A stretch of DNA of 64,000 nucleotides from NCBI GenBank assembly GCA_012549035.1, contig GCA_012549035.1_4805.1; one strand, 5' to 3'. The stretch is from a phage. A model generated the notes under the pieces. It made no database searches. It had not been told where the DNA came from and saw only the letters and a program-made list of their open reading frames with translations. How positions within the stretch are numbered: the first letter of the stretch is position 1; every line of letters begins with the position of its first letter. This document shows, piece by piece, positions 9,145 to 34,513 of the stretch. Made by a program: the position numbers and the translations under genes.

Positions 9145-9146
9145 GT

Positions 9147-10562: not shown

Positions 10563-10609
10563 TACAGATTCCTCTCAGAGAGATGGCCGCCAGTTACGGC
10601 GGCAATTAT

Positions 10610-12148
10610 TTAAATAAGAACGTCACGACCTTCAACGCGACGCACAGCATCATCTTTAGAGTAGATTAGCGTGTATGTTGCATAGTATTCGGTGCGGTTA
10701 TCGGAAGTGGTTTCAGTGTCAAAATCGACAGTCAACCAATAACCGATAGTCTCAACCTGCCGCCAAGCAGTGTTATCACCGGAAGTTTGCGTGATGTACT
10801 GTTTCTGGATTTCCGTCAGCGCCTTACCGACAGAGATGGTGCCGTTAACCTTCGCATTGTCAACAGCAACTTGAATCATTGCTTGTACAGTCGCTTTGCC
10901 TTCTTCGTTTGCAGGCACGCGACCAAGATTCAAGAACATGCTGAACAGCTGAGAAGTGATAGCAGATTTAAGCCACATCTCGTTGGCATAAGTGTTCATA
11001 TCAACTGCTGCGGTAGACCCGCCCATCAGAACACCACGCTGGAAGAACGCGAGAGTTTGACCAGCTTGCTGAGTCGCACCGATATAGTTTGCACGGTTTT
11101 GATCAGCAGTATCTGCGCGTGAATCAGTCGATACGGTTACATTTCGCGTTTCAAACTGATAATACATGTAGTTTTGAGTTGCATTTACAGTGTTATAGTT
11201 TGTCGCCGCGAGAATTTCAGCAGGTGCCTGGTCGATGTAATCATTCGCGAGGTTAGTTGCACGGATCATCATACCAACGCCTGAATAACCTTTCAACGCG
11301 GTATAGTATGAGCCGATGTTGGCGAATGCAGTCGAGAACAGATACATGTACATGTTGTTCTGCGAGTGAGTCCAAGCTGCAACGGCTGTGATTTCTTCCA
11401 GCGTTCGGTCTGCTCCAGCGAAAAGGAATGAGCCAAAGTTGTTGGAAATCTCCACAGATGCCGCGATGGCTTCTACCGGACTTGCTACACCCTGGCCAGC
11501 AACCGTAACGGTGCCAGTAGTCGTCCAACCAAGCGCCTGAGATGGGTCTGTAGGTTGGCCTGTGACGTTAATCGAAAGGTTTCCAGCGCCAGCGGTCGAC
11601 GTAGCGGCTTCCAAAGTGAACTGCTGGGTGTTGGCATTCCAATACACTTCTGCATCAGCAAGTGCAGGCACCGACGTGCCACCTTCTGCTGCAAACTTGG
11701 TGTTGATTGCCGTTTCCAAAAGTTCCGCTACGTTGGCAAGGCTTGTTGCCGCTGAAAGGTTGATGGCGTCAGTCAGGTAGTCTGTGCCGTCATAAGTGAT
11801 GCTTAAGATAGCGCCAGTGAATGCCTGGAAAGTGGCAAGTGTTTTAGGCTCAGTGTCGCCGATAACCATTGCAGGAATCGCCGTGGATACAACGCGAGAA
11901 AAGCTGATTGAATCAGGCGAGTTGATTTGCTTGCTGATGAATCCGAAATACAGTGCTGCACGCTTGTATTCTTCGGAAGAAAAACCGAAATATGATCCAA
12001 CGGCATCAGCAGTTGAAAATTCTGCTACAACGCCTGGCGGCAGAACTGTATTGGAAGTCATGATGCGAAGCGACAGTTTGCGAACTGCAACAGCCGCGCC
12101 TGCTCCGACCCCTGATACAATTTTAATATAACGAGATTGACTGATCAC
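10610..12148 (-). CDS. Tail sheath-like protein (putative)
   Basis: 512-aa ORF upstream of tube-like gene; size and position fit contractile-tail sheath; uncertain without search. Confidence 0.4.
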   Translation of the reverse strand: MISQSRYIKIVSGVGAGAAVAVRKLSLRIMTSNTVLPPGVVAEFSTADAVGSYFGFSSEEYKRAALYFGFISKQINSPDSISFSRVVSTAIPAMVIGDTEPKTLATFQAFTGAILSITYDGTDYLTDAINLSAATSLANVAELLETAINTKFAAEGGTSVPALADAEVYWNANTQQFTLEAATSTAGAGNLSINVTGQPTDPSQALGWTTTGTVTVAGQGVASPVEAIAASVEISNNFGSFLFAGADRTLEEITAVAAWTHSQNNMYMYLFSTAFANIGSYYTALKGYSGVGMMIRATNLANDYIDQAPAEILAATNYNTVNATQNYMYYQFETRNVTVSTDSRADTADQNRANYIGATQQAGQTLAFFQRGVLMGGSTAAVDMNTYANEMWLKSAITSQLFSMFLNLGRVPANEEGKATVQAMIQVAVDNAKVNGTISVGKALTEIQKQYITQTSGDNTAWRQVETIGYWLTVDFDTETTSDNRTEYYATYTLIYSKDDAVRRVEGRDVLI

Positions 12149-12160
12149 GTCGGTGTCCTC

Positions 12161-12646
12161 TTATTTAATGACTTGGCTGTTGACAGATTGCCACATAAGG
12201 CTGCTGTGAATTAAAGGTTTGTCGAATCCTTTCACACGCACGGTATATCTGGCGTTTCTTTGCCAAGGTCCGTTTTTAATTGATTCGACAATCTTTGCTT
12301 CCATCGCAAGCCCAATCTGACCTAATGCCTGTCTAGCGTCTATTTTACCGGAAAAAATCTTTTTAGCAATTTTATTCTCTATTTCACTGCGATCACTAAC
12401 GAATAATTCATAGGCATATCTCATGAATGGTCTGGGTGGCACTTCTACCCTGACTGGGCCTTGTCCAAAGTTCAAAACGGCTATGTGACCAAATTCATTA
12501 AGCCGCGCGACTTCTGACACCAACATCCCTTCTCCACCAGTTTCTGAAGGGTATCTGGTAGAATCAAACCATCCTGCCTCTACAGTAAGACCCTTCATCG
12601 ATTGAAGCGCCTTTATCTGTTTTTCTATCATTTTTGATTTTGTCAT
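12161..12646 (-). CDS. Head-tail connector / tail completion protein (putative)
   Basis: 161-aa ORF between capsid and tail blocks. Confidence 0.45.
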   Translation of the reverse strand: MTKSKMIEKQIKALQSMKGLTVEAGWFDSTRYPSETGGEGMLVSEVARLNEFGHIAVLNFGQGPVRVEVPPRPFMRYAYELFVSDRSEIENKIAKKIFSGKIDARQALGQIGLAMEAKIVESIKNGPWQRNARYTVRVKGFDKPLIHSSLMWQSVNSQVIK

Positions 12647-12647
12647 A

Positions 12648-13229
12648 TCACACCGGAATATCGCCTAAATCGTTATTAACAGCTCTTGCAACAGCAGGCG
12701 TGTCAATTGAAATTGCGTTTCTGTGAAGGATTACCAAATCAAAAGAAGGAAACGATTCAAATTGCGACATGTCGTCATAGAACTTTTCATTGTTGTTCAT
12801 GTCGACTCTATATACTGAAGCTTGATGCTTTTTAAACCAATCTCTCAAATTAGCCTTGTGGGTTATGAATCTTGCTAAATAAGTCAAAACGTCATTAGCC
12901 GTAGGCTTTTCTGGATTGCCAGGGACTTCTGGAAATAAACCGCTAATTTGAAGACGTGTTGCGTATATCTGATCTTCAATATCTTTGAATTTTCCATTAA
13001 CGAATTGAGATTCATCATTGACAAATTCATTCTTTCTCATCGACCAACCGAATGGAACTGAGAATAAAAGGTTAAACCAAATCTGATCACCAGTCGGAAT
13101 GCCCTGTTGAGTCGGTTGGTATTTTTTCTGGACCGGAACAGCAGAAAGGTCTGCACGACTATACGCCGCCAGACCTTCTTCAATTCGCGTTGCCAGCATG
13201 TCAATCAGGTCGACATCTGTCATATACAC
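12648..13229 (-). CDS. Hypothetical head-tail joining protein
   Basis: 193-aa ORF, tight spacing. Confidence 0.45.
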   Translation of the reverse strand: MYMTDVDLIDMLATRIEEGLAAYSRADLSAVPVQKKYQPTQQGIPTGDQIWFNLLFSVPFGWSMRKNEFVNDESQFVNGKFKDIEDQIYATRLQISGLFPEVPGNPEKPTANDVLTYLARFITHKANLRDWFKKHQASVYRVDMNNNEKFYDDMSQFESFPSFDLVILHRNAISIDTPAVARAVNNDLGDIPV

Positions 13230-13230
13230 C

Positions 13231-13617
13231 TCAAGTAGACACTGGAAAGCTTTGTTTTACTTCCACGGCAAGGCAAGACGTCCAACCATCTTGGTCAAAC
13301 CATGTCGTTTCATCTTCCATCTTGTACGTTTTGCCACCAAACACAAAATAGTCGCCGGAAGCGTCGCGGTCAAGGTCAACAATGTCTTTGTCCACCCAGA
13401 TTTTGACATAGTTCTTTTGAAGCTCTAAACCAAGCTCAACGTATTGGTTTCGAAGTACAGCCTGCACCGAAGCAAGTAAGGTGATTGGTTCTTCATATGT
13501 AGTGACATAGTTGCGCATTTTATCAAGGGTGCGCCCCTTGTACATGTAATATTGAATCGGTTGGCGACCGATAACCTTTGTCGCAACTCGATATAAGTTT
13601 ACGCCAGGAATCCTCAC
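13231..13617 (-). CDS. Hypothetical head-tail joining protein
   Basis: 128-aa ORF. Confidence 0.45.
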   Translation of the reverse strand: MRIPGVNLYRVATKVIGRQPIQYYMYKGRTLDKMRNYVTTYEEPITLLASVQAVLRNQYVELGLELQKNYVKIWVDKDIVDLDRDASGDYFVFGGKTYKMEDETTWFDQDGWTSCLAVEVKQSFPVST

Positions 13618-14078
13618 CAGAATACCCCACCAATTTTACGAAATCCTTCGCGCTCTGGAAGACCACCGAATGACAAGCCACCAACGGCCAATGCTTGAAG
13701 AAGCGCCCACAACGCCATGCCATATGGAGTGCTTGATAGCCAGTATTCCCAGCCATCACTCGCAGGCGGCGCGACTTTGTTCACTGTGATGTCACCAATT
13801 GTTGCGCCAGTCACGAAGCCGCCTTGTTCAACTCCGTCACCAGAAGACACAGACACTTGTTGGTCTGCGGCTATGCATAAAAGATGAGCCGTCATATATT
13901 CCAATGCCAGCTCCAATTTACTGCCATTTAAAACACGACAAGGACTGTCTTGTGATTCAATAAATTCACATGCCATGTCATAGAATACTTGAAGTGTTGT
14001 GTCAGGGAATTTAACCTGATCAGCAAACTGTGGAAATTTAATTCTGAACTTTTCGTAATCTAATGACATGGCATTCAC
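13614..14078 (-). CDS. Hypothetical head completion protein
   Basis: 154-aa ORF overlapping downstream start. Confidence 0.45.
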   Translation of the reverse strand: MNAMSLDYEKFRIKFPQFADQVKFPDTTLQVFYDMACEFIESQDSPCRVLNGSKLELALEYMTAHLLCIAADQQVSVSSGDGVEQGGFVTGATIGDITVNKVAPPASDGWEYWLSSTPYGMALWALLQALAVGGLSFGGLPEREGFRKIGGVFW

Positions 14079-14083
14079 CTTAT

Positions 14084-14548
14084 TTAAACGCGGAATAAAT
14101 CATCTTCTTGGTCGCCGCTCAACTTTACCTTGATGCGCTTGTCAGCAGTTTCGCGCGTCATAGGCGCAAACGGGTCGTCTGACATGCTGCGAACTTCTTT
14201 AGCGACGGCTTTGTGATTGCCAACAATGTCGTGATTTACGACTTTCACCAAACCTTTTTCAAGATGCTGCTTAAACACGTGATGATCTTTCAGATGCTCA
14301 AAATCTGCATCGCTTACAACGGTGACGATTCCTTCAGGAGTCCACAAAGGTGCACCGTCAGCGCCTTTTGCCATTTCACCAAAGCCGGAAGTTGCTGAAG
14401 TAAGACCAGCGCCACCCTTGATCAGAATCTGTTTGCGGATGTTTGGAAGAGCGCCTGAACCAGCTTTTGCATTCGGGTTTTCTTTCACTTCCGTATAGAA
14501 GGTGTAGTTAACTGACATAGACATAGTTGAAACGATGTATTTTGACAT
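14084..14548 (-). CDS. Hypothetical virion protein (possible decoration protein)
   Basis: 154-aa ORF immediately downstream of major capsid gene. Confidence 0.45.
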   Translation of the reverse strand: MSKYIVSTMSMSVNYTFYTEVKENPNAKAGSGALPNIRKQILIKGGAGLTSATSGFGEMAKGADGAPLWTPEGIVTVVSDADFEHLKDHHVFKQHLEKGLVKVVNHDIVGNHKAVAKEVRSMSDDPFAPMTRETADKRIKVKLSGDQEDDLFRV

Positions 14549-14663
14549 TTTGTAGTCCTATTTATATAAGCCTCAGATAAGCCCCTACAGCCCTTGAGGT
14601 CTATTGATATGGGGCGAAGCCTTTCGACCACGCCCCATGTGTTTTACTGTGTAATCACAGCAA

Positions 14664-15803
14664 TTAAATACCAGTCATACGGACGACTGCGAAAGGACGC
14701 TTGAGCAAAACGCCTGCTGTTGCGTTTGCGTAGTCTTCAACGTAGCTCTTAGCACGCTTTTCAACGCCCAGAGTCATGAACTTGGTCTGAACCAGCTGAC
14801 TGAATACGGAACCATCATCGCTTGAGCCATCGATTGAGGAATCAATGTGATCAGCGTACAGGTATGCCACGTTCAAGAAAGTCGGGTCACTGCCAAGTGC
14901 GCCGTTGAGTTCCGGTGCAGACTTGATCTTCATCTTCGGATAAGTCTGGGTGATCCAGTCACGTACAGAAATACCGAAGTCAGTGGTGTTGGACAGCCAA
15001 TCGATAGAGTTTGTCGGCAGCGCCAGAGTCATGTCAACCTTCTCTGGATCAATCTGGTCCTGAGAGTTCACACGAATTTGACGAACCATCAAACGGATGT
15101 CTGCAGTCACCTGTTGGAAGGTCGCAGTAGCCCAGCCGGAAGTGGTGTTGGAAGTCATCGCCGCTGGCAGGTTTGGATCATTCAGGAAGCCGAACGTGCG
15201 GTTGTTCCCGTTGTACCAACCATAGAAGCCGATTGCGTTACGCATGATTTCCAGAGATACAGCGGCCTGCTGGCGTTTGGTTTCTGCGGAGTTCAGACGC
15301 ATCGCAGACGCGCGGCCTTCTTCCAGCATACCAACTGCCATGCCCATTTCACCGCGAACGATAGAGCGACGTTCAAAGTTTACGTTCCAGCTTGCCAGAG
15401 GAATAGAGGTGAAATCACCATATTCAACTGCGGTGCCAGCTGGTTCAACGATGCCCTGAACGATTTCTGCATCTTCCCACTGACCAACGGTATCAATACC
15501 AACCAGCTCGTCGATTTTACGAGCAGCCGTCATGATTTTGACGAAGCCAGGCAGCCACTGCTGCAGGAATTGCAACGGGGTCGGGATTGACGGAGTAGTC
15601 TGCGGCGCAGTAAACGCGGCGTCACCTACGCGAAAAGCGCCTGCACGGTTTAAGTGCTCAATCTGATCACGCACAATCGCGGAATCAAACACAATACCGA
15701 TACGAGCAAGCTGGGAAACAGCCGCGTCAGTAACGGATTGCATATCAAAAGGGCGCACCTTGCTCGCTGGGAGGCGAGAGTGTGTTTGGCTAATGCGAGT
15801 CAT
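14664..15803 (-). CDS. Major capsid protein (putative)
   Basis: 379-aa ORF after scaffold/protease genes; size and position typical of HK97-fold capsid proteins. Confidence 0.55.
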
Positions 15804-15817
15804 TATTCACCTGCCTA

Positions 15818-16435
15818 TTAACGAGTCAATTGTACAATGGTATAAGTGGAAGACTGGACGCTTGGGCCGGAAAGGGCAATAGCAGTCGGGTCAATCACGA
15901 TACCGCCTGGAATGGCAACCATGCCAGTTGGCAGTGAGCCAGTGTAGGCGATAATTGCACCGATAGGCAAGTTGTTCGGGTTGTTACCGCTGGAAATGCC
16001 TTTAGGTACATAAGCGAGCAGGTCGCCGTAGTTCAGCGTCTGCGGACTGGTGCTTGGGTTGAATACTTCAACTACGAGGCCCGTGCACATATCGTAGAAC
16101 TCGCCTTCGCTATATTGAGGCAGAACCATGCTGGCGCCCAAAGGACCAGTAGAGTTGCCATACAGAGCGTAACGCTTGCTGTTGCCAAGGATGCCATAGT
16201 AATTGGTGCCGCCCAGTTCAACTTCAAAGTCCTGCGCGCCCAAGGTTTTGGTTTGACCAGTACCCATTAAAGATACGTCATCTTTAAAACCAAACACACG
16301 GCTAATGGCGTTTACGTTTGCACCGTCGTTGGCGCTAACGATTCGGCCTGGCTTCCCACGCTGTGGGCCGTCGCGAACGATGTCGCCAGGAAAGCCAGTT
16401 GTATATTGACGGCCTACACTAGTTTGGAAAGTCAT
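15818..16435 (-). CDS. Hypothetical head protein (scaffold or decoration)
   Basis: ATG at 16435 overlaps upstream stop and has AAGGGG SD; track ORF starts at non-ATG 16456. Confidence 0.5.
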   Translation of the reverse strand: MTFQTSVGRQYTTGFPGDIVRDGPQRGKPGRIVSANDGANVNAISRVFGFKDDVSLMGTGQTKTLGAQDFEVELGGTNYYGILGNSKRYALYGNSTGPLGASMVLPQYSEGEFYDMCTGLVVEVFNPSTSPQTLNYGDLLAYVPKGISSGNNPNNLPIGAIIAYTGSLPTGMVAIPGGIVIDPTAIALSGPSVQSSTYTIVQLTR

Positions 16436-16437
16436 GT

Positions 16438-17856
16438 TTATTCCCCTTTCAACCAAGCTTCAAATGCTTCGTCAGTTGCTGCAGAATCCGCAGCGGCCTT
16501 TTGTTTTGCGACTACACGCTGTTTTTGACCGTGTTCAACGCCGCGCAGATAATTATCCACAACGTCAAACTCAGCACCATCAACGCACTTCAAGCCTAAC
16601 TTTTTAGCGCCATATTTCGCTACGGACTTGGAGTCCATAGTTGCATGATCAAAGGCACCAACAACTTTAGACAGGCGCTGGTAGAGGCTATTCTTACGAG
16701 CAGAATCAGCGTAGAAAGCAGCAACTGCTGAATCAGATGCCATTGAGTGTTCCCCTTTTGCTGGACCTGGCGACGCTTTCGCCGCTTTTGTCGGTTTGTC
16801 ATCTTTTTCGACCGAAGCCCCCTTTACGTTGCTGTTTTGCAGGCCGCTAACCACATCTTCAGCTTTGTCGCAAGGTGATACATCTTCAGCCTTGACTTCA
16901 ACTTCTTCGTCTTTGACTTCGGCTTCAACTTCTTCTTCATCACCTACCGCGCCACCTTTCAGTTTTGCAATAAGTGCTTCGATTTGGCTGATCAATTGCG
17001 GAAGTTCGCCGCCAGCGTGAGATTCAGTTTCAACTTCAAACTTCTCTTCACCTTCTGGGGTTTCTTCTGCTTCTGCCTTGACTTCTGGATCAACCATTAC
17101 TTCTTCACGATTTTCGGTTGAGTCCTTCTCTTCTGCTTTCACTTCAACTTCATCCTGATGAGCAGCTTCAGCACTCTCTTCGTTCAGAAATTGTTCGAGC
17201 GCAGGGATCAGTGATTTCAGCTGTTCAACAGCATTATCACGCGCTTTACCTTTTAACGGTTTTGGCATGTCTAAATCCTCGTTGGATGGTGTTACAGTCG
17301 TCAAACAAAGATGGTCAAAGCAACGACCATCCAGCACCCGTGCACCTGGTACTCGACCAACGTCCACGAGAGCAATGTGGTTGCCGCGAAGAGTTGTCTG
17401 CACCACTTCATACGGCTGCCCGTCAAACTCTCCAGACTGTATGATGAATTCACAGTCATAGCCCAAAGACAAGTCAACCTTTCCAGAATCAATGGCCTTC
17501 TTCAGACGACGGCTAAACACTTTAAGGTCGCCGCGCATCCATGGCTTGTCATAATAAACATTGCCAGTCAGAACGCCATCAACTCCATACTCTTCGGGTG
17601 CTGTGTTATCCTCATCACCTTCAAATCCAGAAAGCATTTCGTGATTGTCGATGAAAGGGATATTTTTGAATGAATCTATCGCTTCGGGGTCTTTCACCGC
17701 TGACTCAGGGCGATAGACTTTTACGATGCGATTCGGATCACCATCAAGACCAACTTGACCAGCAGAATAATCAAAAATGCCAAATGACGAAATTGGACAA
17801 CCCATAATCGTCAAGAATCCATTTTTGTCAATTTCGCGTGCCGTTTGCATTCGCAT
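16438..17856 (-). CDS. Prohead protease / scaffolding-like protein with acidic coiled-coil region
   Basis: 472-aa ORF; Glu/Lys/Ala-rich central region typical of scaffolds; GAGGGTGG SD; alternative ATG at 17850. Confidence 0.45.
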   Translation of the reverse strand: MRMQTAREIDKNGFLTIMGCPISSFGIFDYSAGQVGLDGDPNRIVKVYRPESAVKDPEAIDSFKNIPFIDNHEMLSGFEGDEDNTAPEEYGVDGVLTGNVYYDKPWMRGDLKVFSRRLKKAIDSGKVDLSLGYDCEFIIQSGEFDGQPYEVVQTTLRGNHIALVDVGRVPGARVLDGRCFDHLCLTTVTPSNEDLDMPKPLKGKARDNAVEQLKSLIPALEQFLNEESAEAAHQDEVEVKAEEKDSTENREEVMVDPEVKAEAEETPEGEEKFEVETESHAGGELPQLISQIEALIAKLKGGAVGDEEEVEAEVKDEEVEVKAEDVSPCDKAEDVVSGLQNSNVKGASVEKDDKPTKAAKASPGPAKGEHSMASDSAVAAFYADSARKNSLYQRLSKVVGAFDHATMDSKSVAKYGAKKLGLKCVDGAEFDVVDNYLRGVEHGQKQRVVAKQKAAADSAATDEAFEAWLKGE

Positions 17857-17968
17857 CCACCCTCAAATAAGTATTGTGTATTATATCTAATGAAAAAAAC
17901 TTAGGCAAACAATAATTATGGTTTGAATATGTATAACAACCGATATAGCCGCGCCTTTATTAGTGTGA

Positions 17969-18193
17969 TACGGATGATACGGATAAAATGAGGCGTATTT
18001 TTATCCGTATCGGTGTATAAGCCGCGCTATCACTGGTGTGCTACGGATGATACGGATGATACGGATACTTTTCATATATAAGAGTTTATAAAAAAAAATA
18101 AAATTAAATTATATATATAATTTTAAATTAATTTATTTGAATTCCTATATAGTACGGCGGCAACGCGTATCATCCGTATCATCCGTAAGATTC
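17969..18193. repeat. Iteron cluster R1 (GATACGGAT-type 9-bp units) flanking extreme AT-rich tract
   Basis: GATACGGATGATACGGATA (x2), inverted TATCCGTATC, CTACGGATGATACGGATGATACGGATAC (x3), AT-rich 18075-18150, then 29-bp GCGTATCATCCGTATCATCCGTAAGATTC (18165-18193) identical to 34419-34447. Confidence 0.6.
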
Positions 18194-18273
18194 TTTTGAA
18201 AACAATAACTTACTTGATACGTATGATACGTCATTATACGTATAAAACTCGCGGCAATCCTTTGCCGATGAAT

Positions 18274-18411
18274 TCAGTGGATATTAAATAGCACTCCTGC
18301 AACTAAAACGCCAATCAGCATTGAGTCATAAACAGCCCATTTCCAAGAAAGCAAAGAGTTGCAATTAATATTTCGCACTTTAACATAATGTGACTGAATA
18401 ATCTTTTGCAT
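18274..18411 (-). CDS. Small membrane protein (45 aa)
   Basis: Hand-translated MQKIIQSHYVKVRNINCNSLLSWKWAVYDSMLIGVLVAGVLFNIH; GAGGAAG SD before ATG; hydrophobic C-terminus; below ORF-track size cut-off. Confidence 0.4.
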   Translation of the reverse strand: MQKIIQSHYVKVRNINCNSLLSWKWAVYDSMLIGVLVAGVLFNIH

Positions 18412-18421
18412 AACTTCCTCT

Positions 18422-19342
18422 TTAGTTCAGCTTGATTGCGGTGATCTGTCCGTAAACGGTAGATGTCAATGCCTCTGTGCATTGATAGTTTAGATACACG
18501 TTGCCAGGCGCGGCAAGAGTGATTATCTTTGTTGGAATATTGCCGCCGAAACGACCTGCAGCCCGAATGCCAGCTGACATCGTAAATGCATCATCCGTAA
18601 TATCTGAATCGCTTGTTGACAATTTGGCTGTAATTCCGGTATTCGCTTGAATTCCTGCTGTCGCGACAGTCAACTGACTTGCCGTCACAAGCCACTTTCC
18701 TGCAGGAAGGTTTAAGGTCGCCAGATTAACCAAAGTGGTTGGAGGATTGCTAACACTGTTCGTGGCACTCTGGACGGTGCTTTCCGCTGCGTTAAGCACA
18801 CCGGAACCATCAATTGATAGAGTTGTACCGACCTTTACGCCGCCTAAAGTAGATGCTGACGCAATCGGCAATGAGTATTGAGTAACGCTAATTGTACCGT
18901 CACCTGCGACGCTTATTCCGCTTCCTATTTTGACGCCGCCGAGAACAGAAGCCGTTGCCGCTGGTAACGTGTATTGGTTGCCGCTTGATTTGACCACTTT
19001 AACGGCGACAGCATTCTTTGACCCTCCAGACTCCATTCCTATAATCACTGCTTCTCCAAAAGCGATGGTGATTGTAGATGCAGTTAAACCAGTCTGCACG
19101 TCTGTTATGTTCATTTTGGGAACTGAAAGTGTCAGATTCGGCTTGCTGGTAGAATCGCCATCATTACCGATCATAAAGAATTGACCAACTGAATTGTATC
19201 CAGACGCCAATGGCGGACTCAATGGAACAATCAGGTTTTTATCGGATGTAAATTCTGAAACAATCGCCAAACCGTTAGCATATACAGCAGGCAATACTGG
19301 CGTTTGTCCAGATAGAGGAAACGTGCTGATTGGTATCGTCAT
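18422..19342 (-). CDS. Virion protein with Ig-like/fiber repeats (head fiber or decoration, putative)
   Basis: Repeats LPAATASVLGGVKIGSGISV / LPIASASTLGGVKVGTTLSI; ATG at 19342 with GAGGT SD avoids overlap with MuF-like gene. Confidence 0.5.
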   Translation of the reverse strand: MTIPISTFPLSGQTPVLPAVYANGLAIVSEFTSDKNLIVPLSPPLASGYNSVGQFFMIGNDGDSTSKPNLTLSVPKMNITDVQTGLTASTITIAFGEAVIIGMESGGSKNAVAVKVVKSSGNQYTLPAATASVLGGVKIGSGISVAGDGTISVTQYSLPIASASTLGGVKVGTTLSIDGSGVLNAAESTVQSATNSVSNPPTTLVNLATLNLPAGKWLVTASQLTVATAGIQANTGITAKLSTSDSDITDDAFTMSAGIRAAGRFGGNIPTKIITLAAPGNVYLNYQCTEALTSTVYGQITAIKLN

Positions 19343-19349
19343 AATGACC

Positions 19350-20201
19350 TCAAATGATTGGTATTTTTCTGCACTTGCAGTGTATTGCCCATCCAGGAGG
19401 ACCGATGTCACCCTTTTTGAACTTCAATTCGCCGCCAACTTCCCATAGGCGCTTGTCATCAAGTTTGAATCTCATTCCGTCGACGTGTTCATGAGAGATT
19501 CGCGGCTCCTTTCCTGCTCCTGAGTGCGCCCACTCAAATTCTTCGACTCCATTCTGGCGCATCCTTTCATCGCTTAGAACGCAATACAATTTGCTTGTCT
19601 GGTCTTTAGCGATCAAGTCGACTCTCTTTGCAGAGAAGTGTTTTACGTTTCGCAATGCCGCCTGAATGCCTGACGTGCCTTGCTGGGCTGGGTCGGGAGA
19701 AGTCAGCGAAAGCATGACTGCTTCGTACACTCTGTTGTGAATATCCTCGCCGACCTTAGTCACTAGAGTCGTGTTAAACTTCTCGCTTGTTCTAAGAGTG
19801 TTCTCAACGAATTTGTTATATGTGGCCTTTGGCGCTTCTATGCCTGCGGACTTAAGGCTTGCGAATGTAGCAGAAGTGGCACCCTTTTCGACCGATTTGA
19901 TAAAATCAGCGGCAATCTTCGACCCAACACGTGCAAACGCCTTTGCCCATTTCAGTTGCAGCCGTTTCATAAGGGTCTGGAATGTCGAATCAGCAGAGTC
20001 TTGCGCAAAAAACTTCTGCACCTGCTTCTTGTCAAGCCATTCTGAAATGCCTGCCTGATAGTCATCAATCATCGCATAGCAAAGACCTTTCATCTCACGA
20101 CGATAGGCCATCGCGATTGCGTTGGATGGGATTATCGGACTGCCGCGCCCGACTCTATCGGGTAAGCGGCGTTCACGTTTTTTCGAAGCTTTAAAAGCCA
20201 T
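19350..20201 (-). CDS. Head morphogenesis protein (Mu F / SPP1 gp7-like)
   Basis: C-terminal HVDG...PPGWAIHCKCRKIPII resembles conserved MuF-family motif; directly downstream of portal; ATG at 20201. Confidence 0.6.
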   Translation of the reverse strand: MAFKASKKRERRLPDRVGRGSPIIPSNAIAMAYRREMKGLCYAMIDDYQAGISEWLDKKQVQKFFAQDSADSTFQTLMKRLQLKWAKAFARVGSKIAADFIKSVEKGATSATFASLKSAGIEAPKATYNKFVENTLRTSEKFNTTLVTKVGEDIHNRVYEAVMLSLTSPDPAQQGTSGIQAALRNVKHFSAKRVDLIAKDQTSKLYCVLSDERMRQNGVEEFEWAHSGAGKEPRISHEHVDGMRFKLDDKRLWEVGGELKFKKGDIGPPGWAIHCKCRKIPII

Positions 20202-26529: not shown

Positions 26530-28881
26530 ATGCCAAGGCTAATATTCAAAAACAACTTTGAGGTCGCGCTCGCTCAGCCAACGACGACTTCAGACACCAC
26601 AATCACAATCCGCTCAGGGTCGGGCTTTCCGGCCTTGGGCGCAAACGAGAGTGTAGTGGCGACAATCGTCGACGCTGCAACAGGCCTCCAATTCGAAATC
26701 ATCACAGTAACAGCCGTCGTTGGTGATGTCCTGACCGTTCAGCGTGCACAGGAAGGGACTGCAGCGCGTGCATGGGCTGCTGGTGACATGCTTTCCATTC
26801 GAACAACTGCTGCGACTTTGACGGGTACTGTCCGAAACTTTGGCGTAATTCCTAATGGAGTAAACCTTAACGCGCTGAACGGAAGCTGGTTCGGGCAGTA
26901 TTACCAACTGGCTGATTCTGGGGCATCAATATCACTCAACTATCCTGTCGCACAAGCGGGAATACTTGAAGTTTTACAAACGGGAGTTTCAACGAACGGA
27001 TGTGTTCAGCGATACACACCTTACAACACTAACACTGTATACCAGAGGCTGTATAATGCCATCACATCAACTTGGTCTGATTGGGTTCAAGTTTATAATA
27101 CGCAAAGCGTTATACCAGTCGCAAATGGCGGTACAGGACAAACGACCATCCAAGGGATGAAGTCTGCTTTTGGATTCGGAACGGTCGCTGATCAAAACAT
27201 TGTTCCCACTTCAATGGGCGGTACGGGATCAGCAGACAATGCGCAGGCATGGCTTAACATTCGTCCACAAGGGTCGACTCCGCTGGCTGGCGACCCTGTG
27301 AATGATTATGATGCCGCAACTAAGCGTTGGGTTGAGAACTTAGTAAATACTGGCACCGTTGGCCCAAGCATGAACGGTGTTATGAACTATGGCGTCGGTG
27401 ACTTCCACTTACGCGACAGTCGTGCTTATATTCAACCGTATGAAGTCGTTGCTGATGGGCAGTTGTTAAACCGCGCTGACTGGCCTGAACTTTGGGCGTA
27501 TGCGCAAATGCTTTCTCCTATTGCTGATGCCGACTGGCTTGCCGACCCAGCGAAACGCGGCAAGTATTCACTTGGTAATGGCACAACGACATTCCGTGTG
27601 CCAGACCGTAACGGTATTCAGACGGGATCAATAGATTCTCTTTACGGTCGAGGCGATGGTGGCAATTCAAGTCTCGACGGAACAGTGATTGAATCAGGTG
27701 CACCAGATATTCAAGGTTCCATCCGAACGGTTTCGGCAGCAGCTGTATTTGAAAACTCAGGGCAGAGCGGCGCATTTTACAATCAAGAGGCGACTTATCC
27801 TTATGCAGACCTTGGCAGCATAACTGCGCCAGGCGCTACAACAAATTATCCAAGGCGTGTGAGTTTTTCAGCCAATCGATCAAATTCCGTGTATGGCAGA
27901 ACGACAACCGAAATCCGACCGAAGTCATTCATCGGCGTTTGGGTAATCCGTGCATCTGGTGGGTTCGTGGCGGCGAATACGACTTGGAGCGTTATTAATG
28001 GTGACGCAGTAAAACCTGCAACCGGAACGCTTGTCAGAGGCGGCAGTGTAAAATCTGAATATAAAATTGGCACCAACATTGCGTATCAAGCATTCTTGCA
28101 AGCATACGGTAAGATTGATGGATTAACGTCTGAACAAGGTGCTGTGATATCTAATGGGGTGCAAGAATGGAAGTTTGCGCAAGACGGTACATTTTATTTC
28201 CCTGACTCCATAAATCAAATTGGCACGGAAAGGTCAGACGGGGCGTTGAATGTTAATGCATATCTCAGACCAAAAGACCTTGTTGCGAAACCGTTGAACT
28301 CAGTAGGCGTTTCAGCGTATGAAAGCAACGGCATGAGGATGATAAACTTCAACCAGTCAACACCTGGGTATGTATCATATTTTTCAGGGGATTGGTATGC
28401 TGGCAGTTATACATTCGGAGGCGTTCGAGGCACCGGAGTTGATTTGATGCACGCGCAAATATCCATAAACAATGGGCAAGGCGCTGCAGCAGACTTCAAA
28501 TTTCTACCTGATGGTACTGCTACTGCAGGGAACTGGGTAAGCACGTCTGATGAAAGGGTAAAAACAAATATTCAAAGGATTTCCGACCCGTTAGGAAAGA
28601 TGAGGTTGATCAAGGGTGTGACTTGGGAGCGCCTTGATAAGTCAGAGAAACCGAATGGCATCGGCTTTATAGCTCAAGATGTAGAAGGTGTATTCCCTGA
28701 CGCAGTAAGAACTTTGAAATATTCAAACACGGAACTTAAGGATGGCACGGTTGTAGAGAATATCAAGTCAGTCGACACTTACGGAGTGGCAGCGGCACTG
28801 CACCACGAGGCTATTCTCGCATTGATGGATCAAATAGATGAACTCAAGGCAGAGATAGCCGCGCTGAAAGAAGCGAAATAA
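26530..28881 (+). CDS. Tail fiber/spike with C-terminal intramolecular chaperone (peptidase S74-like) domain
   Basis: 783 aa; GAGGA SD; C-terminal SDERVKTNIQRISDPLGKMRLIKGVTWERLDKSEKPNGIGFIAQDVEGVFPDAV matches auto-cleaving chaperone domain of endosialidase-type fibers. Confidence 0.75.
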   Translation: MPRLIFKNNFEVALAQPTTTSDTTITIRSGSGFPALGANESVVATIVDAATGLQFEIITVTAVVGDVLTVQRAQEGTAARAWAAGDMLSIRTTAATLTGTVRNFGVIPNGVNLNALNGSWFGQYYQLADSGASISLNYPVAQAGILEVLQTGVSTNGCVQRYTPYNTNTVYQRLYNAITSTWSDWVQVYNTQSVIPVANGGTGQTTIQGMKSAFGFGTVADQNIVPTSMGGTGSADNAQAWLNIRPQGSTPLAGDPVNDYDAATKRWVENLVNTGTVGPSMNGVMNYGVGDFHLRDSRAYIQPYEVVADGQLLNRADWPELWAYAQMLSPIADADWLADPAKRGKYSLGNGTTTFRVPDRNGIQTGSIDSLYGRGDGGNSSLDGTVIESGAPDIQGSIRTVSAAAVFENSGQSGAFYNQEATYPYADLGSITAPGATTNYPRRVSFSANRSNSVYGRTTTEIRPKSFIGVWVIRASGGFVAANTTWSVINGDAVKPATGTLVRGGSVKSEYKIGTNIAYQAFLQAYGKIDGLTSEQGAVISNGVQEWKFAQDGTFYFPDSINQIGTERSDGALNVNAYLRPKDLVAKPLNSVGVSAYESNGMRMINFNQSTPGYVSYFSGDWYAGSYTFGGVRGTGVDLMHAQISINNGQGAAADFKFLPDGTATAGNWVSTSDERVKTNIQRISDPLGKMRLIKGVTWERLDKSEKPNGIGFIAQDVEGVFPDAVRTLKYSNTELKDGTVVENIKSVDTYGVAAALHHEAILALMDQIDELKAEIAALKEAK

Positions 28882-30651: not shown

Positions 30652-30677
30652 GGGTCGCTGTTGCGGCCCTTTCTTTT
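30652..30677 (+). terminator. Intrinsic terminator closing plus-strand cassette
   Basis: Stem gggtcgc/gcggccc (one G-U), loop tgtt, tail tttctttt. Confidence 0.55.
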
Positions 30678-30893
30678 GCCTGCCGCGCAGGAGTGTACTG
30701 CAAAATTCCTGTGGGTACAAAATAGTACGGTACTGTCTAGGGCTTTTTCTTTGAAAAGTTAGTGGACCAAATGTGTCGTATTTTGATTAGTGTACCGCAA
30801 ATTTCATCAAGTACCAAAACGCACCAAAAGACCCATGCCATAAAAACCACACGAACGCAATAATCAATCGCCGTTACAGTTTCCAGCGTTACA

Positions 30894-30956
30894 ATTCGAA
30901 AGCGAATGATTCGACGCATAATAATATGAAGCACAATGATTCGAAAGCGAATGATT
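30894..30956. repeat. Direct repeat TTCGAAAGCGAATGATT x2 (46-bp spacing) in untranslated gap
   Basis: Identical 17-mers at 30894-30910 and 30940-30956; each contains cgaat-N-attcg inverted motif. Confidence 0.6.
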
Positions 30957-31274
30957 GTGTGTAGGATAATATCGGTGGGGATTATTCGAGATGCATGTAA
31001 TTTCGCATGCGTACTATTTTCGGGCGAAGGGTCGGCATATTCCTCGTTTTAGTTCGGAACGAAGGGAAAGTTTTGCGCCTTTATAAAACAACGACTTACG
31101 CGACCCGCCCTAACGGTCCGATATAGGTGTCTATATAAAACAAGGACTTACTCGATGTTCTCCATTTAACGTAATACCTGTTATGCGAACTAAGGCGCAT
31201 CTCGATGAAGATTATGCGACGAAGAAGGGAAGGATAAAGGAGTTTTTTGCGGAGAAGCGCATCGAGATAGGGAC

Positions 31275-31300
31275 GAAGAAAAGCCGCGACTAAGCGCGGC
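31275..31300 (-). terminator. Intrinsic terminator closing minus-strand island operon
   Basis: On minus strand GCCGCG-CTTAGT-CGCGGC followed by TTTTCTTC. Confidence 0.5.
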
Positions 31301-31326
31301 CTATTAGTAACGGTGGGTGATTATAA

Positions 31327-31536
31327 TTAAAGGAATAATCCGGCGCGTTTAATTTGCCCAAGGACGTTATCGCGACGGCGACGCATAACCGCGTATTTAA
31401 CTTCTTCTTCGTATCCCCAGCCGCCGATGGATAACATCGCGTTCATATTATCGCATAATTCCTTAAGCTCGCGAAACATATCGATTACGGCGGTGCGATG
31501 GGCGCGCGCGTTAAGAGAGTTATTCATATTAGTCAT
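31327..31536 (-). CDS. Hypothetical protein (CpG-rich island)
   Basis: 69-aa ORF with AAGGAG SD; CpG-rich codon usage unlike flanking genes. Confidence 0.5.
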   Translation of the reverse strand: MTNMNNSLNARAHRTAVIDMFRELKELCDNMNAMLSIGGWGYEEEVKYAVMRRRRDNVLGQIKRAGLFL

Positions 31537-31546
31537 TTTCTTCTCC

Positions 31547-31837
31547 TTAAAGGCTTACGATTTTAAAGTAAGTTACTTCGCCGCCGAGTTGCGGTACAGC
31601 GATATATTCGCCGCCGATTTCGGTGATCGTATAAACGAATCCGTTAATCGTTACGCGGTAGGATACGATGTCCTCGTCGCGATACTTGTAAAGGTCGAGG
31701 AAGTTGATCGGCTCATAAATAGACTCGATAATCGCGTCGACGTTAGAGAGATAAACGCTCTCTAAGGTTTCGCCAAATACGTTAGAGTTTTCGGAAGTTT
31801 CGACGCGAGCGGCGCGGATAGCGGATAAAGTAATCAT
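31547..31837 (-). CDS. Hypothetical protein (island; paralog of 31944..32246)
   Basis: 96 aa; AGGAGA SD; preceded by conserved promoter/5'UTR cassette A. Confidence 0.55.
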   Translation of the reverse strand: MITLSAIRAARVETSENSNVFGETLESVYLSNVDAIIESIYEPINFLDLYKYRDEDIVSYRVTINGFVYTITEIGGEYIAVPQLGGEVTYFKIVSL

Positions 31838-31940
31838 AATATTCTCCTAGTTAGTCGGGAGGGTAGCGACCTATTCGCTACCTCATCCCCTCTCGATATA
31901 AAACATTATAGCCTTAGTGTACGAATAAGTAAAGCACTTT
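31838..31940 (-). promoter_or_regulatory. Promoter + 5'UTR cassette A (sigma70-like -35 TTTACT / -10 TATAAT, UTR hairpin)
   Basis: Minus-strand TTTACTTATTCGTACACTAAGGCTATAATGTTTTATATCGAG; UTR hairpin ggtagcg...cgctacc; homologous to cassettes B and C. Confidence 0.5.
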
Positions 31941-31943
31941 TCG

Positions 31944-32246
31944 TTATTTTGCGATAAAATATTTGTAAGCCTTATCGCCTTCTACGTCGATATACTCGAC
32001 GATAATTAATGCTTCGCCGCGCGGCGTAACCGTCTCGATAAGGGTAACGGCTTCGTCGTCGGTCTTCGCGAAGCGGATGGCGCTACGTTCGGCGTACTTG
32101 ATATCGTCGAAGGAAAGACCGACGAAGGCGACCGCGCGGACCTTAATGGCGCTAGATTCTAGTTCGGCGTTAACGGCGGCGATAAGAGAGCGAACGGTTA
32201 AACGGTCTTCGTCGTAAGTAAGGATGGAAGAGATTAAAGTGGTCAT
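31944..32246 (-). CDS. Hypothetical protein (island; paralog of 31547..31837)
   Basis: Start at MTTLISS (ATG 32246) after GGGAG SD; about 100 aa; track N-terminal extension lies in promoter cassette. Confidence 0.5.
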   Translation of the reverse strand: MTTLISSILTYDEDRLTVRSLIAAVNAELESSAIKVRAVAFVGLSFDDIKYAERSAIRFAKTDDEAVTLIETVTPRGEALIIVEYIDVEGDKAYKYFIAK

Positions 32247-32336
32247 AATAAAACTCCCGATGCTAGTGGAAGGAAGGGCCATCGCCCGTCTCGATATAAA
32301 CAAGTATACGTGAGTGTACGAAGAAGTAAAGAAAAA
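32247..32336 (-). promoter_or_regulatory. Promoter + 5'UTR cassette B
   Basis: Minus-strand TTTACTTCTTCGTACACTCACGTATACTTGTTTATATCGAG; same architecture as cassette A. Confidence 0.5.
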
Positions 32337-32371
32337 GATAAATAATTTATCTCATTTTTATCGAAAAAGTG

Positions 32372-32469
32372 CTTTACTTTTTTCTACACTATATTATAAT
32401 GTACTCATATCGGGACGGGATGAGTTGACGAATAGGTCGTTAACACTGCTCCCAAACTAGGAGTTTATT
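32372..32469 (+). promoter_or_regulatory. Promoter + 5'UTR cassette C (inverted copy of cassette A)
   Basis: Plus-strand TTTACTTTTTCTACACTATATTATAATGTACTCATATCGGG then GGGATGAGTTGACGAATAGGTCG...ACTAGGAG; divergent from cassette B. Confidence 0.5.
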
Positions 32470-33108
32470 ATGGCCAGTTTGAATCGTTTCTCCACCAGCG
32501 GCGACGTAATCGCAACCAAGACAGCCGACCTCGTTGCATTCTATAACGAAAATTCAGGCTCAAAGCCGATTAAAAAATTCGCGGACCGCCGGACCGCCGA
32601 GACTCGCGTAATCGCGTTAATCGAGTCCTTAAACGCGCTCGATGAGCCGTCCAACGAATCGCCCATCCCAGACGTGAAGGCGCGTGAGGAAGTGTCCAGC
32701 GATGTAAAAACGCATAAGGCGCGTGCGGTCGTTAAAAAGGCTGAGCCGACCCAGGAAGAACTCGACGCGATGAGTGATGAAGAGTATGAAGCCTTCGTTA
32801 AGAGCAGCCTTAATAGCGCTCCGGTTGGCGCTCCGGTTGGCGCGGATAAAATTGCCAGCCCTTCCCATCGCCGTTCGAATAGCGAAGGTATTGCAAAAAG
32901 TTGGGATAACAAGGAAGTGGCGCAAAAGCGTCTCACCCGTAACGGCGTTATGGTCGAGGGTGTAGGCGAGTTCAAATCGGTCCGCGTAGCGTTCGCCGCG
33001 CTGGGATTACCGGATAGCAAGCACATTCGCTTCCGCATGAAGCTTAAAGAAGCTGGACGCTTGAACTTCGAGTTCGGCAACAAGTCCTACACCTTCCAGA
33101 TTATCTAA
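32470..33108 (+). CDS. Hypothetical protein (island)
   Basis: 212-aa ORF, CpG-rich codons; driven by cassette C. Confidence 0.55.
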   Translation: MASLNRFSTSGDVIATKTADLVAFYNENSGSKPIKKFADRRTAETRVIALIESLNALDEPSNESPIPDVKAREEVSSDVKTHKARAVVKKAEPTQEELDAMSDEEYEAFVKSSLNSAPVGAPVGADKIASPSHRRSNSEGIAKSWDNKEVAQKRLTRNGVMVEGVGEFKSVRVAFAALGLPDSKHIRFRMKLKEAGRLNFEFGNKSYTFQII

Positions 33109-33115
33109 TCGAATG

Positions 33116-33137
33116 GCGGCCCTTCGGGGTCGCTTTT
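33116..33137 (+). terminator. Intrinsic terminator (UUCG tetraloop hairpin + T-run)
   Basis: gcggccc-ttcg-gggtcgc followed by tttt. Confidence 0.55.
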
Positions 33138-33158
33138 CATAGTGCAAATTGGTGGCTT

Positions 33159-33422
33159 ATGAATACGCTTATTCTCATCGCTACGTTGTCCATCGGAAGT
33201 GGTCGCACCTTATCCCTTTATGATCATAGTGCAAATTGCGCTTACCCAACGCGCGTTGCGGCGATAGTTAATAGTGCAAATCGAATGCTATTCGAGACTT
33301 GTTGGCGGGTCGATAACGAGAAAGGGCGCATCGTCTTAGGTTATAGTGCAAATCTGCTGGTGGAGTCGTTCGACTGGACGGCGGAAGGTCGTAAATTGTT
33401 ACGTAAAGTGACTAAAAGATGA
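33159..33422 (+). CDS. Questionable small ORF encoding SAN tripeptide repeats
   Basis: 87-aa ORF; GGTGG SD; three in-frame motif copies give H/N/Y-S-A-N; nucleotide-level conservation suggests the DNA motif is the selected feature. Confidence 0.25.
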   Translation: MNTLILIATLSIGSGRTLSLYDHSANCAYPTRVAAIVNSANRMLFETCWRVDNEKGRIVLGYSANLLVESFDWTAEGRKLLRKVTKR

Positions 33423-33536
33423 CTTATAATAATACACTTTCTAACGCGTTTATGGCTGCAGCCTTCCCCGTCGTATTACCGATGGCCCTAGAAGTGGAGA
33501 AAATGTGTTCTAGGGCCGTTTTATAGTGCAAATTGG

Positions 33537-34010
33537 CTAGTGGCGGGAGAATTGCTCACCCTCTTTGGCCGCCTCTCCAAAATCCTTGTAGAAATCGTCC
33601 ATGGAACGGCCCATTTTACTATTGCCATTCTCATCAATCATCGTGATGCCGTAGATGATATTCAGTTCACGAATGGCATTAAGCTTGGCTGATGCCGCGA
33701 CTTCTGGATCACGCACAAGCTTCACTAAATTGTGAATGGAACTCTTTACACTCCACAATTCCTTCAATGGCATCTCTTCCATACGCTTTTTGTAGCGCAT
33801 CTTGTAGTACGGATTGCGTTGCGTGCAGAGGATTCGCTGGCCAGTGTAGTTATCGGTCGCAACCTCCATGCCAAATACTAGTGCAAAAGCTGCGCGCATG
33901 TCATGGCCCTGAATAACAAGGTCAATGAACTCATCGAATAATGCCTGATTATGCTCTGCAAATCGCGGGTCTTCAAAGTCTTCAGGCATTGCTACATAAT
34001 CTTGACTCAT
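33537..34010 (-). CDS. terS: Terminase small subunit-like protein (putative)
   Basis: About 157 aa from ATG 34010 (MSQDYVAMPEDFEDPRFAEHNQALFDEFIDLV...); N-terminal HTH-like segment and ..AKLNAIRELN.. recall Terminase_2-type small subunits by memory; track N-terminal extension rejected. Confidence 0.45.
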   Translation of the reverse strand: MSQDYVAMPEDFEDPRFAEHNQALFDEFIDLVIQGHDMRAAFALVFGMEVATDNYTGQRILCTQRNPYYKMRYKKRMEEMPLKELWSVKSSIHNLVKLVRDPEVAASAKLNAIRELNIIYGITMIDENGNSKMGRSMDDFYKDFGEAAKEGEQFSRH

Positions 34011-34062
34011 AGTGCAAATCCCATAGTGCAAATTAATAGTGTGAATTATACAATGATTGAAC

Positions 34063-34237: not shown

Positions 34238-34513
34238 GCGTATCATGACGTATCATCCGTATTGCCGCAAGTCTTTGTTTTTACTTATATCTTACGGATA
34301 ATACGTTAAATATATAAATTAACATAAGTATGAGGATGTAGAAAAAAATTAATTTAAATTAATTCAAAATGGAGTTAATTAATTTTTGAAATAATTCTGG
34401 TTACAATAAGGAAAAATGGCGTATCATCCGTATCATCCGTAAGATTCAGTGTACAAATCCAGGCGCGGCGCACCCTAGCGCCATGATACGGATAAAAACC
34501 TATCCGTAAGAGT
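34238..34513. repeat. Iteron cluster R2 (GATACGGAT / ATCCGTATC 9-bp units) flanking AT-rich tract
   Basis: GTATCATGACGTATCATCCGTAT, TTACGGATAATACG, 29-bp GCGTATCATCCGTATCATCCGTAAGATTC (34419-34447), inverted pair TACGGATA-N6-TATCCGTA; AT-rich block 34305-34410. Confidence 0.6.

Follow-up and report, generated by a model that had tools for sequence, protein, structure and literature searches.

The DNA analysed here, called the window, is a stretch of 64,000 nucleotides (nt) from a phage (NCBI GenBank assembly GCA_012549035.1, contig GCA_012549035.1_4805.1), and the subject of this work is a block of small genes, the island, located at about 30,870 to 33,450 of the window. A 3-kb region containing the island matched Wifcevirus genomes (among them ECML-117, vB_Eco4M-7, WFC/WFH, Mansfield and Bas98-101) at 94-96% identity in 29 records, and the window belongs to an E. 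coli myovirus of this genus that resembles ECML-117. Wifceviruses are E. coli and Shigella myoviruses of about 68 kb and distant kin of the Pseudomonas PB1-like phages. The island was found to lie in a direct terminal repeat (DTR), to carry three copies of a promoter cassette and to be strongly depleted of the dinucleotide steps TG and CA. It is interpreted, with a probability of roughly 60%, as the immediate-early module of Wifcevirus, the DNA of which is under a local constraint against TG/CA steps. The genes and features at the locus are as follows; o/e denotes the ratio of observed to expected dinucleotides and aa amino acids.

30652-30669, plus strand: terminator called by the terminator scan.
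30746-30829, no strand: inner DTR boundary; the WFC boundary falls at about 30746 and the Mansfield PhageTerm boundary at about 30829.
30870-31274, no strand: non-coding stretch obeying the TG/CA rule; CpG o/e 1.7-2.2, TG/CA o/e 0.4-0.7.
31275-31302, minus strand: intrinsic terminator of the leftward unit; matched by the scan, 8 pairs (6 G-C) followed by a T-run; annotated in Mansfield and WFC.
31327-31536, minus strand: gene C, 69 aa, accessory; PHROG 10377 'transcriptional regulator' (1.6e-37), no Pfam hit.
31547-31837, minus strand: gene B, 96 aa, acidic orphan; 16 protein clusters only, all on contigs of about 68 kb.
31838-31943, minus strand: cassette P1; -35 hexamer TTTACT at 31933-31928, -10 hexamer TATAAT at 31910-31905, start predicted at about 31898.
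31944-32246, minus strand: gene A, 100 aa, acidic orphan; found by tblastn in 29/29 Wifcevirus records and nowhere else; 20 protein clusters.
32247-32345, minus strand: cassette P2; -35 hexamer TTTACT at 32330-32325, -10 hexamer TATACT at 32308-32303, start predicted at about 32296; shorter leader hairpin.
32355-32469, plus strand: cassette P3; -35 hexamer TTTACT at 32373-32378, -10 hexamer TATAAT at 32395-32400, start predicted at about 32407.
32470-33108, plus strand: gene D, 212 aa; PHROG 4730 (of unknown function), core gene of PB1-like phages.
33116-33137, plus strand: putative terminator 3' of gene D; stem-loop followed by TTTTC; missed by the scan, WFC counterpart annotated (-16.8 kcal/mol).
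33159-33422, plus strand: gene E, 87 aa, weakly biased tail of the island; CpG o/e 1.7, TG/CA o/e 0.7-1.0.

The position of the island was established from the ends of related genomes. The Mansfield record contains a DTR of 3673 bp, predicted by PhageTerm, that covers exactly the studied region, and a terminal repeat of about 3.7 kb has been described for WFC and WFH (PMC6563267). Recomputation on the WFC record gave 3784 bp identical between both ends. On the window the repeat extends from its inner boundary at about 30746 or 30829 to an outer end at about 34370, and the right end of the physical genome is formed by the inner boundary of the right-hand copy. The gene block is located inside the repeat and stops about 40-120 bp before the inner boundary, and it therefore makes up the outermost 2.6 kb or so of the genome in the right-hand copy. 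A linear, non-permuted genome with the block inside a direct terminal repeat is one of the features by which a pre-early module is recognized. A second is a content of small, mostly orphan genes that undergo gain, loss and divergence, and this was likewise observed for the island. The first-pass annotation, which was made from the sequence of the window, had started the island at 30,678; the compositional island was recovered, with its actual start at about 30,870.

Genes A and B, both leftward, encode acidic proteins without His, Cys, Trp or internal Met; Gln occurs once in B. Twenty-nine Wifcevirus records showed the island or gene A, and the capsid gene of the genus, at at least 99% identity, was also found in 29 records. 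The WFC orthologue of gene B is 61% identical, and F13 and Mansfield carry a paralogue of gene B (E = 2e-5) downstream of P3. Paralogy had been suggested between the proteins of 96 and 100 aa, but neither BLASTP (E = 21) nor hhalign (probability 0.7%) showed any similarity between A and B. Their AlphaFold models, which have a similar order of helices and strands, are of low confidence (pLDDT 52 and 60). Gene C is found in about nine Wifcevirus records and, at about 45% identity, in 308 Klebsiella Webervirus records. Mansfield, Bas101 and WFC do not have it, and most relatives lack it while retaining the cassettes. A comparison with acr-aca-type systems traced the regulator label of gene C to PHROG 10377, with no Pfam helix-turn-helix hit. 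Self-regulation of the block was not supported, as the idea depends on this label of a 69-aa gene that most relatives lack and for which Pfam gave no DNA-binding hit. Gene D belongs to the core of the PB1-like group and is inherited vertically there; its homologues were found in 356 phage records, from Pbunavirus and from Serratia, Xanthomonas, Pantoea and Burkholderia phages. The gene has 212 aa here and 208 aa in nearly all relatives, the difference being a tandem duplication of the 12-nt unit GCTCCGGTTGGC (APVGAPVG) at 32800-32850 of the window. Additional genes were seen in other genomes, namely an extra gene of 94-104 aa behind P3 in many relatives and a 50-aa gene between A and B in AV128, RCIP0363 and ECO71P1. 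No RNA gene was detected in the region by Rfam and tRNA searches.

A 19-nt core, CTTTACTTNTTCGTACACT, was located at 31916-31934 (-), 32313-32331 (-) and 32372-32390 (+) with 0, 0 and 2 mismatches, respectively, where 0.03 matches were expected by chance. The three cassettes could be aligned over about 110 nt with 74% column identity, and each of the three cassette types has been kept across 20 genomes. They contain sigma-70-like hexamers (TTTACT and TATAAT or TATACT, separated by 16 or 17 nt) that agree with the consensus at 9-10 of 12 positions, a conserved start region UAUAUCGRGA, a 5' stem-loop and a strong Shine-Dalgarno (SD) sequence. The proposal of three promoter and 5' untranslated region cassettes, two on the minus and one on the plus strand, was thereby borne out by the core, the alignment, the hairpin and the SD sequence. 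In the P1 leader the stem-loop is found at 31862-31882, the SD sequence is AGGAG and the hairpin has a folding energy of -21.3 kcal/mol (z = -2.6). P3 is placed back-to-back with P2, and its stem-loop at 32424-32444 has the same AAUAGGU loop as P1. The P1 and P3 leaders form an 8-bp stem closed by this invariant loop, with 98% of cells paired across 13 distinct sequences. Two base pairs of the stem differ between P1 and P3 by compensatory double changes, and the covariation support for the leader is modest, as it comes from what is essentially a single P1-versus-P3 divergence. The 5' leader hairpin may serve as a stabilising element or as a protein-binding site.

At the level of the sequence, P2 is placed to transcribe gene A, P1 to transcribe genes B and C up to a terminator, and P3 to transcribe gene D rightward up to a terminator. 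Of three terminators previously proposed to bound the block, those at 30652-30669 (+) and 31302-31281 (-) were called by the scan; the one at 33116-33137 was missed by it and has an annotated counterpart in WFC. The general description of the locus as a terminator-bounded block of small unknown genes with private cassettes and aberrant composition was upheld. In F13 (L003, 2760-3160) the P1 cassette and a truncated gene A are duplicated in tandem, which is evidence of recombination between cassette copies. The non-coding spacer at 30870-31274 contains short direct repeats at 30894-30972 (repeat families D4 and D6), and 31079-31103 and 31131-31155, which share a GTTTTATAT motif, are probably decayed, leader-like remnants of the cassette.

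The composition of the island was compared with that of 300-nt windows outside it. CpG o/e was 1.9-2.5 over 30,870-32,400 and 1.4-1.8 onward to about 33,450, compared to 1.09 +/- 0.23 outside, and the region is CpG-rich as first described. The G+C content of 0.45-0.50 in the region does not differ from that of about 0.46 in the remaining window, and a G+C shift as the basis of the island was rejected for this reason. Symmetrised TG/CA o/e was 0.21-0.45 in the island and 1.18 +/- 0.13 outside, and TA o/e was raised to 1.1-1.5 from 0.65. A k-mer comparison over the whole island gave the same picture, with CG and TA up and TG/CA down more than 2-fold. In WFC, the depletion of TG/CA spans DTR position 850 to 3650, approximately, of 3784, and the WFC counterpart of the non-coding spacer has a TG/CA o/e of 0.36-0.45. 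The rule can be stated as follows: pyrimidine-purine steps of the duplex are written as CG or TA, and TG/CA is avoided four- to five-fold.

The rule is visible in the choice of the third codon position. At codons ending in a pyrimidine (Y), C was chosen in 93% of the cases before G and in 19% before A (Fisher p = 7e-34), and in about 50% before C or T. The rest of the window showed the opposite tendency, with C in 42% before G and 61% before A. The codons CTG, TTG, GTG, TCA, CCA and ACA are not used at all in genes A, B and C, and the single TG on the coding strand of gene A is its start codon. E. coli genes for ribosomal proteins and elongation factors had a C fraction of 0.44-0.50 in all next-base contexts. 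The codon usage had at first been characterized as C-ending; this description, and host-optimal usage with it, was rejected because of the flip with the next base, the unused CTG and the E. coli ribosomal-protein control. A preference for CpG as such was also rejected. NCG codons are not preferred in the island genes, and CG results from the avoidance of T at NNY|G junctions, so the CpG excess is a consequence of TG/CA avoidance and not its target. On the sense strand CA and TG are depleted alike (28 and 27), and non-coding DNA is included, so the rule is one of the duplex and not of the message or of tRNA usage. The avoidance is achieved through codon choice, codon order and even the choice of amino acids, in coding as well as in non-coding DNA.

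The strength of the avoidance was estimated gene by gene by comparing the TG+CA count with that of the same protein written in phage-average codons, or with its own codons permuted among synonymous positions. Gene A contains 9 TG+CA, compared to 35.7 +/- 4.2 with phage-average codons and 24.1 +/- 3.3 with its own codons permuted. Gene B also contains 9, where 32.6 +/- 4.1 are expected from phage-average codons, and gene C behaved like A and B. Gene C shows the same context preference, with C16/T1 before G and C2/T12 before A. The effect was weak in gene D (57 observed, 77 +/- 5.8 expected), where the rule is strong in the first 53 codons or so only (C13/T1 before G) and weak beyond. No TG/CA avoidance was seen in the terS-like gene of the same repeat, the composition of which is normal or even TG/CA-rich.

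A longer motif was also considered as the object of the rule. No excess of palindromes or of a longer repeated motif was found beyond the dinucleotide expectation, and apart from pieces of the cassettes no family of 6-mers was present in the island. H-NS nucleation-like motifs (TCGWTWAATT) are 4-5 times commoner than in controls, and this is explained fully by the dinucleotide content. Avoidance of restriction sites was not supported, since the number of 4-mer palindromes is about double that of a control stretch (134 and 72), with TCGA, CGCG and CTAG enriched. The control (27001-28600) showed the usual deficit of short palindromes, with 72 4-mers where 102 are expected from the dinucleotides; the island stretch 30870-32469 is without this deficit (134, with 150 expected). 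A literature search for a TpG/CpA rule in phages gave nothing relevant, and as far as this search could find, a dinucleotide exclusion of such strength is undescribed.

The rule was found to be stable across the genus and independent of the genes that it affects. In 13 genomes the core values were 2.07-2.19 for CG, 1.24-1.41 for TA and 0.25-0.38 for TG/CA. Orthologues of gene B that are 31% diverged in nucleotides (37/96 residues differ) still contain 6-9 TG+CA. Six unrelated island-resident genes follow the rule; among them are the extra gene of 50 aa and the P3-proximal gene in two versions. In KP36, the Webervirus counterpart of gene C (gp06) has a CG of 1.05, a TA of 0.53, a TG/CA of 1.40 and the opposite context preference, and the Pbunavirus and Serratia-phage homologues of gene D are of normal composition (TG/CA about 1.0). 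The signature is accordingly one of place and not of donor: the rule is imposed locally on whatever gene resides there, and it is still being maintained.

In the interpretation favoured here, host RNA polymerase would fire the three promoters once the DNA end is inside the cell, the 5' hairpins would stabilise the messages, and a changing set of small acidic proteins would act in host takeover or anti-defence. A role in host takeover or anti-defence had been suggested before and is a reasonable guess given the terminal-repeat position. Wifceviruses resist all tested restriction systems except EcoP1_I without a known protection of the genome, which makes the island products natural candidates for anti-restriction; they are blocked by cryptic prophages of K-12. 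No match was found between the island proteins and known anti-defence proteins. The Wifcevirus literature was found to contain no expression or functional study of the region, and no transcriptome or DNA-entry data. As to the dinucleotide rule, it is attributed with low confidence to selection on the DNA itself, which would keep the first-expressed segment free of a short TG/CA-containing target of a host or phage factor. A more specific proposal, that the exclusion is an adaptive 'stealth' recoding of the first-expressed DNA and reveals a nuclease, sensor, modification enzyme or DNA-binding factor with a TG/CA-containing target, is put forward tentatively as a possible explanation.

Polymorphism provided a test of selection. 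At synonymous third positions of A and B, transitions creating TG/CA were polymorphic at 27% of 113 sites and neutral ones at 49% of 72, figures that come from 20 phylogenetically structured genomes and are indicative only. Among synonymous polymorphisms, 31 changes create TG/CA and 1 destroys it, which argues against a mutational drive removing TG/CA.

Several observations count against this interpretation. The term immediate-early is derived from promoter consensus, repeat position and analogy with other phages, and suggests rather than proves early expression. No island product had a homologue of known function in Pfam, PHROGs, PADLOC or a PDB sequence search, and two Foldseek searches with the low-confidence AlphaFold models gave nothing usable. 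Gene D shows no present constraint, as neither D nor E displayed a difference between creating and neutral polymorphisms. The frequency spectrum of creating variants in singletons (15/31) is the same as that of neutral ones (15/35). The -35 hexamers, TTTACT and not TTGACT, are also without TG, which fits a mutational bias as well as selection. One lineage carries DNA of normal composition with a TTGACT promoter at the island site. Outside the genus, the T7 early region is without the signature and T5 shows a mild CpG excess only, so first-entering coliphage DNA does not in general follow the rule. Finally, we know of no factor specific for TG/CA.

The lineage just mentioned is represented by a Logan contig (ERR11172834, 1907-3082), in which DNA of normal composition takes the place of the P2 and P3 cassettes, of gene B and of the 5' half of gene A. 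The replacement contains a canonical promoter (TTGACT-17-TATATT) and a gene of 193 aa, and the N-terminal part of the encoded protein has a distant similarity to proteins of large Klebsiella and Cronobacter myoviruses.

The main rival explanation is a local, strand-symmetric mutational bias, arising from the repeat end or from heavy divergent transcription, that converts TG/CA to CG/TA. The island would then consist of ordinary early genes in a mutational hot zone, and no selection on the sequence would be needed. Such a bias would cover non-coding DNA and genes of any ancestry, would be symmetric between the strands, and could account for the gradual fade through D and E and the stop near the repeat boundary, in addition to the TG-free functional -35 hexamers and the absence of a skew of creating variants toward low frequency. 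It would need both T>C and G>A within the TG step, and no known bacterial or phage process does both. Moreover, the repeat also holds a terS-like part whose composition is normal or even TG/CA-rich, the 31 to 1 ratio of creating to destroying polymorphisms is the opposite of the expected drive, and the Logan contig holds DNA of normal composition at the island site. On this balance a mutational origin is considered unlikely, though it deserves to be kept in view.

An undescribed base modification in a TG/CA context could protect the DNA, in which case the earliest genes and promoters might stay motif-free, which would let the unmodified host polymerase transcribe them without slowing or keep them safe from modification-dependent nucleases. 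The duplex-level depletion and the avoidance of TG in the -35 hexamers fit this explanation, and one gene cluster of the genome encodes ThyX together with a PNKP-type HAD phosphatase, a MazG-like enzyme and a short-chain dehydrogenase (SDR). A cluster in Mansfield (48.3-53.1 kb; L011, 41356-46084), which adjoins replication genes, contains ThyX, a PNKP-type HAD phosphatase, a short-chain dehydrogenase, a glyoxalase-like gene and a gene annotated as UDP-galactopyranose mutase (UGM). The protein annotated as the mutase had no Pfam hit and is common to Pbunavirus. This 'UGM-like' gene was the sole candidate checked for lineage restriction, and as Pbunavirus is without the island, no lineage-specific modification gene was found. 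Resistance extends also to EcoRI and EcoRV, the sites of which are free of TG/CA and are contained in the window, and there is no direct evidence of any modification. Avoidance of a modification motif was therefore judged to be quite improbable.

The first-pass annotation had described the block as horizontally acquired, and an accessory island that retains the composition of its donor would explain why the dinucleotide composition is very unlike that of the remaining window, why genes A and B are without homologues outside the genus, why gene C has kin in an unrelated phage genus and why the gene content differs between relatives. The patchy presence expected of such an island was not seen, since the same genes and promoters are found in 29/29 Wifcevirus records, an outcome that the annotation itself had named as speaking against acquisition. 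Gene D is vertically inherited in the PB1-like group and yet partly recoded here, the homologue of gene C in Webervirus is biased the other way, and the signature persists through the 31% nucleotide divergence. No donor with this signature was found, and at the block neither an integrase or transposase reading frame nor flanking direct (att-like) repeats were found. The block is not a recent horizontal acquisition, and the acquisition reading is largely refuted.

Least probable of all is selection at the level of RNA or translation, by avoidance of endoribonuclease sites (e.g. MazF, ACA), of alternative starts (AUG, GUG, UUG) or of slow codons: it would agree with a gene A without UG besides the start codon, with choices of Arg, Ile, Asn, Asp, Pro and Ser codons that resemble those of highly expressed E. 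coli genes and with the very short latent period reported for the phage, but the sense strand is depleted of CA as much as of UG, non-coding DNA is included, CTG as the best E. coli leucine codon has zero use, highly expressed E. coli genes have no NNC|G or NNT|A context rule, and the bias at codon junctions exceeds what codon choice explains.

Further repeats and recombination signals were noted in and around the DTR. Gene E is studded with ATAGTGCAAAT repeats and holds a conserved Chi site. Seven exact, same-strand copies of ATAGTGCAAAT (some of them TATAGTGCAAAT) are found at 33139-34033 (+) around gene E and the terS-like gene, with none elsewhere in the 64 kb and five to seven copies in every relative. 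Recognition by the small terminase (as pac-type repeats) is one possible role, and that of a phage-specific promoter or operator is another. The Chi site in gene E, GCTGGTGG at 33356-33363 (+), is kept in all Wifcevirus loci examined and is oriented for RecBCD entering from the outer repeat end, about 1 kb away. A second Chi site, at 32492-32499 (-) in the start of gene D, faces the other terminus and is present in this genome and vB_Eco4M-7 only. Iteron-like repeats (GATACGGATGAT / ATCATCCGTAT) flank an extremely A+T-rich intergenic stretch at 17940-18250, and the motif recurs at 34245-34262, 34289-34305 and 34416-34445, by the outer end of the terminal repeat. They look like an origin or regulator-binding sites, and the local CpG peak that they cause (o/e 2.4-2.6) is a separate one and has nothing to do with the rule of the island.

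The region pinpoints the probable immediate-early genes of Wifcevirus, a genus often met in E. coli sequencing data and unusually fast in its life cycle. When new proteins for anti-restriction or host takeover are sought, genes A, B, C and D and the variable genes beside them are the candidates to consider first, and the cassette offers a compact, naturally triplicated strong promoter with a putative stabilising leader. For a test of the rule, the genome-assembly platform of vB_Eco4M-7 (PMC11074155) permits synonymous recoding. An adaptive rule would point to a factor reading TG/CA steps, a mutational one to a local mutagenic or repair process. If stealth recoding is true, similar patches of dinucleotide exclusion may mark the vulnerable early DNA of other phages.

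The architecture of the island resembles that of known early modules. In T5, small and mostly unknown genes are likewise located in a long direct terminal repeat (10 kb) with strong host-type promoters and diverging units, and there is a compositional step at the repeat boundary, with CpG o/e of about 1.3 inside and about 0.75 outside. The T5 repeat differs in having no depletion of TG/CA (0.8-1.07) and no rise of TA, its CpG reaches the E. coli level only, and its genes A1, A2 and dmp are unrelated to the island genes. Two-step DNA transfer is proven for T5, whereas the likeness here is one of sequence architecture, and the Wifcevirus repeat, of 3.7 kb, also holds a terS-like gene. When T5 1-10219 was compared with 10220-20000 (L012), a shift of Arg codons from AGA/AGG to CGC/CGT and a mild NNC preference before G were observed; we know of no earlier description of this T5 pattern, and it may be no more than a result of translation before the phage tRNAs are made. 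T7 has clustered strong promoters for the host polymerase (A1/A2/A3) at its leading end and a small acidic protein first, Ocr, which is an anti-restriction DNA mimic. Neither A nor B showed sequence similarity or, with models of low confidence, structural similarity to Ocr. In T7 the CpG o/e is about 1.0 and the TG/CA o/e 1.0-1.2, and ocr is without the context rule.

The host-takeover module of SPO1 contains many small early genes in the terminal redundancy, with strong host-type promoters and ribosome-binding sites of their own. The island is similar in having small early genes in a terminal repeat with host subversion thought likely, and the host and the genes differ; we know of no report of a dinucleotide rule in SPO1. 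Phages are known to avoid restriction sites and other motifs, as in ACA-less messages that escape MazF, where the motif is removed by synonymous recoding and the enzyme is left without a target. The island differs from these cases in that a bare dinucleotide step is avoided on both strands, in a 2.6-kb patch only, and short palindromes are not avoided; no cognate enzyme for TG/CA is known to us. Vertebrate CpG islands share the local CpG excess with a reciprocal deficit of TpG/CpA, but they result from escape from methylation-driven CpG decay in a CpG-poor genome, whereas here CpG o/e exceeds 2, TA is raised, G+C is unchanged and the host is without CpG methylation, and the resemblance is superficial. 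The module itself belongs to the known type of terminal-repeat early module.

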